From: Escherichia coli O157:H7
GTDB lineage: Bacteria > Pseudomonadota > Gammaproteobacteria > Enterobacterales > Enterobacteriaceae
Assembly: GCF_013167455.1 (NCBI RefSeq)
Contig: NZ_CP038328.1
DNA: 64,000 bases
Direction: 5' to 3' (one strand)
This document shows positions 62,801-64,000 of the stretch, piece after piece; positions within the stretch are counted from its first letter, which is position 1, and each line of letters starts with the position of its first letter. Made by a program: the position numbers.

Positions 62801-64000
62801 GCGCAGACCCCTGAACTTCCCCACAACACGGCGGCAATCAGAACGTTCAGCATCCCCTTTCTGGTGGAACCCATTTTTCCCTCTGCATACTGTTTTGTCG
62901 TTTATGTATGCAGGCATGATAGCAAAAATGGCGAGGATGGCTCAGTTTGCGCCACGCCGATTTTTCTTAGCCCAGACTGGTGAGCTAAATATCTTTAATA
63001 AACAGCAAGCAAATCATTGCAATACCCAACATCCCTATCGCCAGCCAGAACAACGTGTGGTAGCTCCAGATTTCAACCATAATTTCGTCAACAGAGCCGG
63101 CGATAATCTAGCCGAAGCGTGAGGTATTTGCATATAACGTTGTTGCGGAACCTATTCTTATTTATCGGAGTGCCTTGCCAGTAATTTACTGACGAGGATC
63201 CTCATAATAGCGTTACCCATCTGTTGCATTGAGACTTTACAGGCCGTTATTCTAAATGACCAAAATTAAATCAGTGCATAAGGGGAAGTATTCTGTAGTG
63301 ATGTCTCCCTGAGATGCAGGTTCCACTGGAGAAAATTATGAGCAGTTTGTTTCAGAATGAAATAAAGGATAAATTTAAAACTGGACTTGCATATGTGCGG
63401 GGGCCAGAAAAAAGCGGATCTTCCGCTCAAAATGCAGGTAGCGAAGGTGGTAAAAAATGCGCCGGGAGAAGCAGAAGATTGTCCCGCGATGTCCGTTTGA
63501 GAAACACGAGTTTGATTAAACGCGTGAGCATGATGATATTAGTAGCTGACCAGAGAAATTATATCCGTCGTAAGCAATAAAAATCAGAAGTGATGTTATG
63601 GATATTTTTAACCTGAATAACTCCGTAAGTACGGGGTTATTCAGGTTTTTGCTAGCCTGTGCTTTTCTATACCAGATGTGGTGTGAACACTCTATTCTGC
63701 ATACAAATTAAATATATTGTAGGATCTAATATAAGTCTGATAATACTAATAGACTGAGTAAGATTCTGGTTGATAATAACTGATATCCTTTTCAACTATT
63801 AATGTGTTTATTTAGCGTGAAATTATACTCGTATTTTTATAACTTTATGAGATTGCCAGGTTTGGTCGATAAATAATAAGGCCAGTGACAGACTTACTTA
63901 TTAGGGACAAATTTCGCGAGGATATCAGGTTCACTGGCAACATAAATGCTTTCATCAGGCAGAGTTACAATTCCTTCAGGTTGGGGCAAATCACTGGTCA

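Follow-up and report, generated by a model that had tools for sequence, protein, structure and literature searches.

Features at the right-hand end of the window

The window analysed here is a 64,000-nt stretch of Escherichia coli O157:H7 DNA, and the features considered lie in its last 1126 bases (62875-64000), immediately past the start of yicL (62874, minus strand). Over these 1126 bases, identity to many chromosomes of E. coli O157:H7 is 100%. From left to right they comprise an intergenic stretch of backbone, two fragments of setC, the upstream region and 5′ end of a T6SS tssB gene (tssB′), the 3′ end of a yjdJ-like acetyltransferase gene (yjdJ′) with its predicted terminator, and the end of rorf1 (Table 1). 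The GC content is 0.33 over positions 63500-63949, as against about 0.45-0.53 in the backbone, which agrees with the AT-rich spacer described in the initial annotation. Because the sequence is identical in many O157:H7 chromosomes and K-12 homology stops at defined breakpoints, these features are not attributable to chance.

Table 1. Features between yicL and the right-hand end of the window, with the positions of orf292 in comparison loci
Feature	Position	Strand	Remarks
yicL-setC intergenic backbone, 110 bp	62875-62984		Collinear with K-12; from the K-12 annotation
setC pseudogene, 3′ fragment	62985-63159	-	K-12 setC nt 1011-1185 (last 58 codons); 163/175 identical (93%)
setC pseudogene, 5′ fragment	63157-63217	-	K-12 setC nt 172-232; 53/61 identical (87%), E = 6e-16
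Non-coding DNA upstream of a dead T6SS tssB, with its ribosome-binding site	63218-63337	+	GGAG at 63328-63331
tssB′, 5′ coding fragment (about codons 1-36)	63338-63431	+	Two 4-nt deletions, near 63364 and 63370
80-aa ORF	63338-63580	+	Maximal form 63314-63580 (88 aa); GGAG 6 nt before the ATG
WP_115801858.1, PGAP 'hypothetical protein'	63393-63500	+	Annotation artefact; tssB′ read into yjdJ′
tssB′/yjdJ′ fusion point	63429-63443	+	Within a 15-nt microhomology, AAACnnCTGGTnGCn
yjdJ′, 3′ fragment of a yjdJ-like GNAT acetyltransferase pseudogene (about codons 52-90)	63432-63549	+	Nucleotide and protein alignment
yjdJ downstream flank, carried with the LEE	63550-63743	+	Alignments of 63434-63743
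Predicted rho-independent terminator of the former yjdJ	63610-63652	+	17-bp stem (63610-63647), 4-nt loop, TTTTT
TGATAA deletion scar, 6 bp	63738-63743		Place of a missing 957-bp segment
AT-rich 3′ flank of rorf1	63744-63893		GC 0.33; from about 63766 common to the LEE at other insertion sites
rorf1, 3′ end (first LEE gene, 272 aa)	63894-64000	-	Stop codon 63894-63896; leaves the window
orf292 (291-aa ORF)	L003 6358-7233; L013 10359-10758; L051 3037-3913	- (L003)	Between yjdJ′ and rorf1

Positions 61900-63159 align with K-12 in a single blastn segment (96.6% identity) that takes in nlpA and yicL together with the intergenic DNA and the final 175 nt of setC. In this region a 31-aa hydrophobic ORF (62985-63080, minus strand) had been proposed as a possible C-terminal remnant of a transporter, and comparison with the reference setC identifies that transporter as SetC itself, 30 of the 31 residues agreeing with the C-terminal 31 residues of the K-12 protein. 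The true remnant is larger than this ORF, occupying 62985-63217 in two pieces that overlap by 3 nt and between which 778 bp (setC nt 233-1010) have been deleted. The 3′ piece also carries a TGG to TAG change at 63108-63110 and is labelled by PGAP as 'MFS transporter, internal stop, missing N-terminus'; of the approximately 394 codons of an intact setC ORF, just the two tabulated pieces are left. An origin of the 61-bp 5′ piece from one of the paralogues setA or setB was considered and rejected; the piece matches setC collinearly with the 3′ fragment, which is more simply explained by an internal deletion. Homology to the backbone extends as far as 63217, and every other E. coli backbone match ends at 63159.

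Identity of the island

In PV15-279, an annotated O157:H7 chromosome of identical sequence, the DNA past the end of the window contains rorf1, espG, ler and the LEE1-LEE5 T3SS genes through espF, followed by IS, toxin-antitoxin and prophage remnants, a tyrosine integrase (P4-type), the adjoining tRNA-Sec gene, and then yicJ and yicI. The end of tRNA-Sec lies 40.1 kb past window position 64000. K-12 synteny (yicJ-selC ... yicL-nlpA) is broken by the island alone, which spans from 15 bp after selC to setC codon 58 and, with the junk sequence included, occupies 40,904 bp in PV15-279 in place of 792 bp of K-12-type sequence. The minus-strand gene whose 3′ end had been seen to run off the window is rorf1; it encodes a protein with the SdiA-regulated domain PF06977 (Pfam E = 5.1e-53), has no match in NCBIfam and is syntenic with espG and ler. 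The initial annotation had further supposed that setC is replaced by foreign DNA at the border of a selC-associated island and that an accessory region continues past 64000. Both suppositions are borne out by the complete LEE annotated beyond the window in identical genomes, with an integrase and tRNA-Sec at its far end. A tRNA scan of the whole 64-kb window detected none, selC being located outside it, and a search of positions 55000-64000 at the Rfam gathering thresholds matched no family.

The feature is the already known distal (right) border of the O157:H7 LEE beside yicL, and the border as such holds no new biology. In comparison with the LEE of EHEC O157:H7 (EDL933/Sakai) at selC, the locus is the same, identity is 100% (including EDL933 for positions 63218-63895), the order of genes from rorf1 to tRNA-Sec is equal and no difference was found; what is added here is a finer dissection of the ∼680 bp between the setC remnant (setC′) and rorf1. 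The O157:H7 LEE of EDL933 and Sakai corresponds to O-island 148.

Composition of the segment between setC′ and rorf1

The left part of the segment derives from a T6SS gene. Positions 63219-63431 align with a region of E. coli AF58 that consists of 120 nt upstream of tssB and the 5′ end of the gene (76% identity; E = 2e-27 in pairwise alignment and 1e-33 in a database search), and the nearest intact tssB found by sensitive DNA search and pairwise alignment has ∼76% identity. The protein encoded by the intact comparator gene belongs to TIGR03358 (TssB; 167.9 bits). The start codon of tssB corresponds to the ATG at 63338 (MSSLFQNEI in the window, MSSSFQNEI in TssB), and in the second frame, entered after the 4-nt deletions, RINLKLDLHMCGGQKKADLPLK matches RVNLKLDLHTGGGQKKVELPLK. 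A full-length TssB has ∼165 aa and is encoded within a T6SS cluster; the window retains ∼36 codons, frameshifted by both deletions, and no tssC follows.

The point at which tssB′ gives way to yjdJ′ was located by comparing the window sequence with those of tssB, of yjdJ from E. albertii and of the junction in Escherichia sp. MOD1-EC7003. Translated yjdJ′ agrees with YjdJ residues 60-90 in 24 of the 31 residues compared (E = 9e-17). An intact YjdJ-type GNAT ORF has ∼90 aa, of which the fragment retains codons ∼52-90, and these are interrupted by a 2-nt deletion (63451/63452) and a premature TAA (63517-63519) ahead of the native stop codon at 63547-63549. Ordinary E. coli yjdJ genes are just 77-79% identical to the fragment. 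For positions 63434-63743, which extend through the downstream flank, identity is 89% with the right flank of a pheV-type LEE, 87% with the yjdJ region of E. albertii and 88.6% with the MOD1-EC7003 LEE flank. The predicted terminator within this flank is a stable, GC-containing hairpin with a T-run (-28.8 kcal/mol, z = -6.15, with 0 of 200 shuffled sequences folding as well); it was established by folding, the promoter scan not having listed it. The same hairpin is found behind yjdJ in three other places: E. coli Rb-23, the E. albertii type strain and the pheV-type LEE flank.

The TGATAA hexamer at the end of the yjdJ flank marks the place of a 957-bp segment that contains a 291-aa ORF ('orf292'). 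In the pheV-type LEE, in E. albertii and in MOD1-EC7003 this segment has a TGATAA at either end; it is missing from the selC-type LEE. The ORF is found in the LEE located beside the glc operon and in E. albertii, and in degraded form in MOD1-EC7003; it has no match in Pfam or NCBIfam. Beyond the scar, positions 63766-63895 can be detected with 94.7% identity in O111 and other strains with a non-selC LEE, where IS remnants lie next to them.

The selC side and the missing att repeat

K-12 homology breaks off 15 bp past selC and is taken up again within setC. Extension of the sequence to the right, which had been suggested as a check, led as anticipated to tRNA-selC and an integrase; the direct repeat of the selC 3′ end that was to accompany them is absent. 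A search of the whole window for the final 21 nt of selC, tolerating as many as 3 mismatches, gave no hit, and the junction has no plus-strand repeat longer than 8 nt. The distal border of an integrase-mobilisable island would be marked by a directly repeated tRNA 3′ end (attR), and as no such repeat exists at the setC border or elsewhere in the window, the attR model for this border was rejected. Rather than an att site, the border is a junction within setC that arose by deletion or illegitimate recombination.

The tRNA-Sec hotspot is also occupied by selC-A of EAEC 042 and the Tia-PAI of ETEC, which possess P4-type integrases (PMC7545054) and in both respects resemble the O157:H7 LEE. The selC-A island is bounded by a 21-bp repeat of the selC 3′ end, after which the backbone genes setC, yicL and nlpA follow (PMC7058095). 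Whereas a selC 3′ direct repeat bounds selC-A/Tia-PAI, the O157:H7 LEE has no such repeat and setC is destroyed.

Distribution of the junction and the neighbouring backbone

Among 5426 complete E. coli genomes, the junction occurs in its entirety in 383, at 98.8-100% identity; these include O157:H7, O145:H28 (99% identical), O127:H6 E2348/69 and others. In 4290 of the 5426, just the backbone part up to 63159 is matched, and ∼1100 have no match to the 3′ end of setC. Some LEE-negative strains lack setC entirely; in one of them, FDAARGOS_1261 (L057 7142-9393), the interval between selC and yicL contains a RhuM-family gene and a gene for a 165-aa hypothetical protein instead.

The LEE of EPEC O127:H6 E2348/69, also at selC, has the same setC′-tssB′-yjdJ′-rorf1 junction as O157:H7 (99.0% identity) with equal PGAP pseudogene calls, and identity between the two is 99.3% over the adjoining 3.3 kb of backbone. 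The EPEC strain differs in a 1-nt deletion in the A-run at 63452-63457 and in having no integrase or prophage remnant beside selC. On the selC side (yicJ-selC; L005 1-6934 compared with L058), identity between O157 and E2348/69 is just 97.4% right up to selC. A fructose-PTS/aldolase cluster lies between yicH and yicI in E2348/69.

Divergence between O157 and E2348/69 is 3.9% in positions 59289-59875 and 0.68% in 59876-63971, and the comparison with K-12 gives the reversed pattern, with 0.6% on the left and about 6% thereafter. The switch of haplotype is sharp and falls within nepI (window positions 59876-60116). These alignments point to recombination with a breakpoint in nepI and to a haplotype of B2 type over the 3.3 kb beside the island. 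The B2-type block can be detected at 99% identity or more in 807 genomes, about 420 of which lack the junction. The identity of the yicL flank in O157 and E2348/69 was considered as proof of co-transfer with the LEE; this argument is weakened by the occurrence of the haplotype in the ∼420 junction-less genomes and by the absence of a corresponding block on the selC side. Co-transfer of the LEE with its flank is plausible but unproven.

Two other segments of the window also vary between strains. Between yicN and nepI (58449-59288) lies a pair of genes encoding a RelE/ParE toxin and an HTH antitoxin, which is found in LEE-negative FDAARGOS_1261 and not in K-12 or E2348/69. A 3.36-kb segment between uhpA and ilvN (46180-49536), with three hypothetical genes, one of them frameshifted, is absent from both K-12 and E2348/69.

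Derivation of yjdJ′ and tssB′

Strain 99E2750 carries a longer yjdJ′ (60 codons) with an equal terminator, and there it flanks a LEE located near the glc operon. The presence of yjdJ′ and its terminator at this site indicates that the fragment moves with the distal end of the LEE and independently of selC. Loci with the conserved YjdJ motif numbered 44 in a scan covering one genome per species, and the E. albertii type strain was found to have an intact yjdJ in its native context (dcuB-dcuR-dcuS-yjdI-yjdJ). In E. albertii, yjdJ is contiguous with a flank of the 99E2750 LEE type (96.8% identity over 816 nt, into orf292); the contig stops inside orf292, and adjacency to rorf1 in this species is taken from the literature and from the E. 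coli and MOD1-EC7003 loci. A LEE of the type present in E. albertii and 'E. coli O8:H- 3431-4/86' has been described at pheU, adjoining yjdJ (PMC3408504). That LEE shares with the window the same yjdJ 3′ end, the terminator and the downstream flank into the distal end of the LEE. In E. albertii, yjdJ is intact and in its native context and orf292 is present, whereas the window has ∼39 decayed codons fused to tssB′ at selC. The geometry fits as well, with yjdJ reading towards the island, the LEE running from rorf1 to espF and the tRNA gene on the opposite strand at the far end. Identity to E. albertii yjdJ is 97.9% for the 99E2750 flank and 87% for the window yjdJ′; the latter value does not point to the E. 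albertii sequence as the direct donor of the O157-type flank.

The fusion itself has a second representative. A 4.4-kb contig of Escherichia sp. MOD1-EC7003 carries tssB′-yjdJ′ beside orf292, rorf1 and espG with 88-89% identity to the window; in this copy neither of the 4-nt deletions occurs, and other sequence lies on the left of tssB′. On this comparison the tssB′-yjdJ′ fusion would be older than the selC junction.

The 80-aa ORF and alternative readings of the segment

The initial annotation had described a basic ORF of 80 aa with an SD sequence and a terminator. The elements are there as described; the reading as a gene fails, the SD sequence being that of tssB and the terminator that of yjdJ. 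The ORF is an accidental chimeric reading frame over two pseudogene fragments, a by-product of the fusions and no gene; it follows the ancestral tssB frame for its first 9 codons only and is out of frame through the rest of tssB′ and yjdJ′. The protein WP_115801858.1, annotated within the same region, has a similar origin, its translation (MCGGQKKADLPLKMQVAKVV...) matching TssB and then YjdJ, and it is marked as frameshifted in E2348/69. That the ORF is instead a genuine gene for a small LEE-associated protein, with a ribosome-binding site and terminator of its own, is suggested by its being open in O157:H7, by the GGAG ahead of its ATG, by the strong predicted terminator 30 nt downstream and by sequence conservation of at least 98.8% in the 383 genomes. 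The A-run deletion of E2348/69 cuts the ORF to 53 aa, however, and a homologue search with the 88-aa form returned 6 clusters only, all near-identical, 52-80 aa in length and in differing frames, while database variants of 52-62 aa occupy several frames. No homologues other than near-identical copies were found, and there was no match to any NCBIfam family. In addition, the ATG and ribosome-binding site are missing from the MOD1-EC7003 version, and the promoter scan detected no sigma-70-like plus-strand site upstream of the ORF, site counts not exceeding those in shuffled sequences. With a frame that varies among strains, a genuine small protein gene is extremely improbable.

The segment could alternatively have been kept as a non-coding RNA or as a regulatory or insulating border element running from the old tssB promoter to the yjdJ terminator, given that the upstream tssB region and an intact, strong predicted terminator are both retained and that selC-type LEE strains are highly conserved here. 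Recently shared DNA can be expected to show high identity in any case, homopolymer runs have indels that differ between strains and the neighbouring 957-bp segment is dispensable; together with the negative Rfam search of 55000-64000 and the lack of a promoter-like plus-strand site upstream, this makes such a function highly improbable. It is also very unlikely that positions 63218-63743 are the remnant of an earlier, different selC-setC island that predated the LEE. The full segment is restricted to strains with a selC-type LEE, O111-type strains sharing the last 130 bp before rorf1 alone, and the 99E2750 flank is without tssB′, as such a remnant might lead one to expect. Yet yjdJ′ and its terminator are contiguous with the rorf1 flank in 99E2750, E. 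albertii and MOD1-EC7003, and the fusion occurs in MOD1-EC7003 next to other left-hand sequence, which argues that the segment moves with the distal end of the LEE. Among the 5426 genomes, furthermore, no LEE-negative E. coli has tssB′-yjdJ′ beside setC at selC. The best explanation, which is very probably correct, is the known selC border of the LEE with non-functional scars between yicL and rorf1, to which an albertii-like origin of yjdJ′ is added as an inference.

A proposed itinerary and its significance

Under this explanation, the LEE that is now at selC in O157:H7, O145:H28 and EPEC E2348/69 would once have been located beside yjdJ, on the pheU side of an E. albertii-like chromosome, and would have taken a piece of yjdJ along when it moved. 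Microhomology-mediated recombination may next have joined this piece to the beginning of a T6SS cluster, and MOD1-EC7003 would still display that stage; the landing in setC at selC would have come last, orf292 having been lost along the way. For want of an att repeat the island would then have been fixed at selC, and it probably spread among E. coli lineages together with adjacent backbone by homologous recombination. The occurrence of an identical, repeat-less junction in distant lineages and the 3.3-kb B2-type block fit a spread of the LEE by this route.

It is put forward tentatively, at somewhat less than even chances of being both correct and undescribed, that the ∼530-bp stretch between setC′ and the rorf1 flank is a record of the itinerary of the LEE from an albertii-like context through the T6SS fusion to selC. 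The reading of the scars as ordered events with albertii ancestry is possibly the sole new element here. The main result is one of quality control, in that the edge of a very well-studied pathogenicity island had been correctly flagged. The 80-aa ORF and WP_115801858.1, as artefacts of fused pseudogenes, should not be propagated as genes. If the proposed itinerary is true, the spread of the LEE would acquire a polarity, with an albertii-like lineage as source and E. coli as recipient, and its events could be placed in order. The yjdJ′ and tssB′ scars provide cheap lineage-diagnostic markers that link the selC-type and some non-selC LEE to an E. albertii-like context, and they could help to order LEE transfers among Escherichia lineages.
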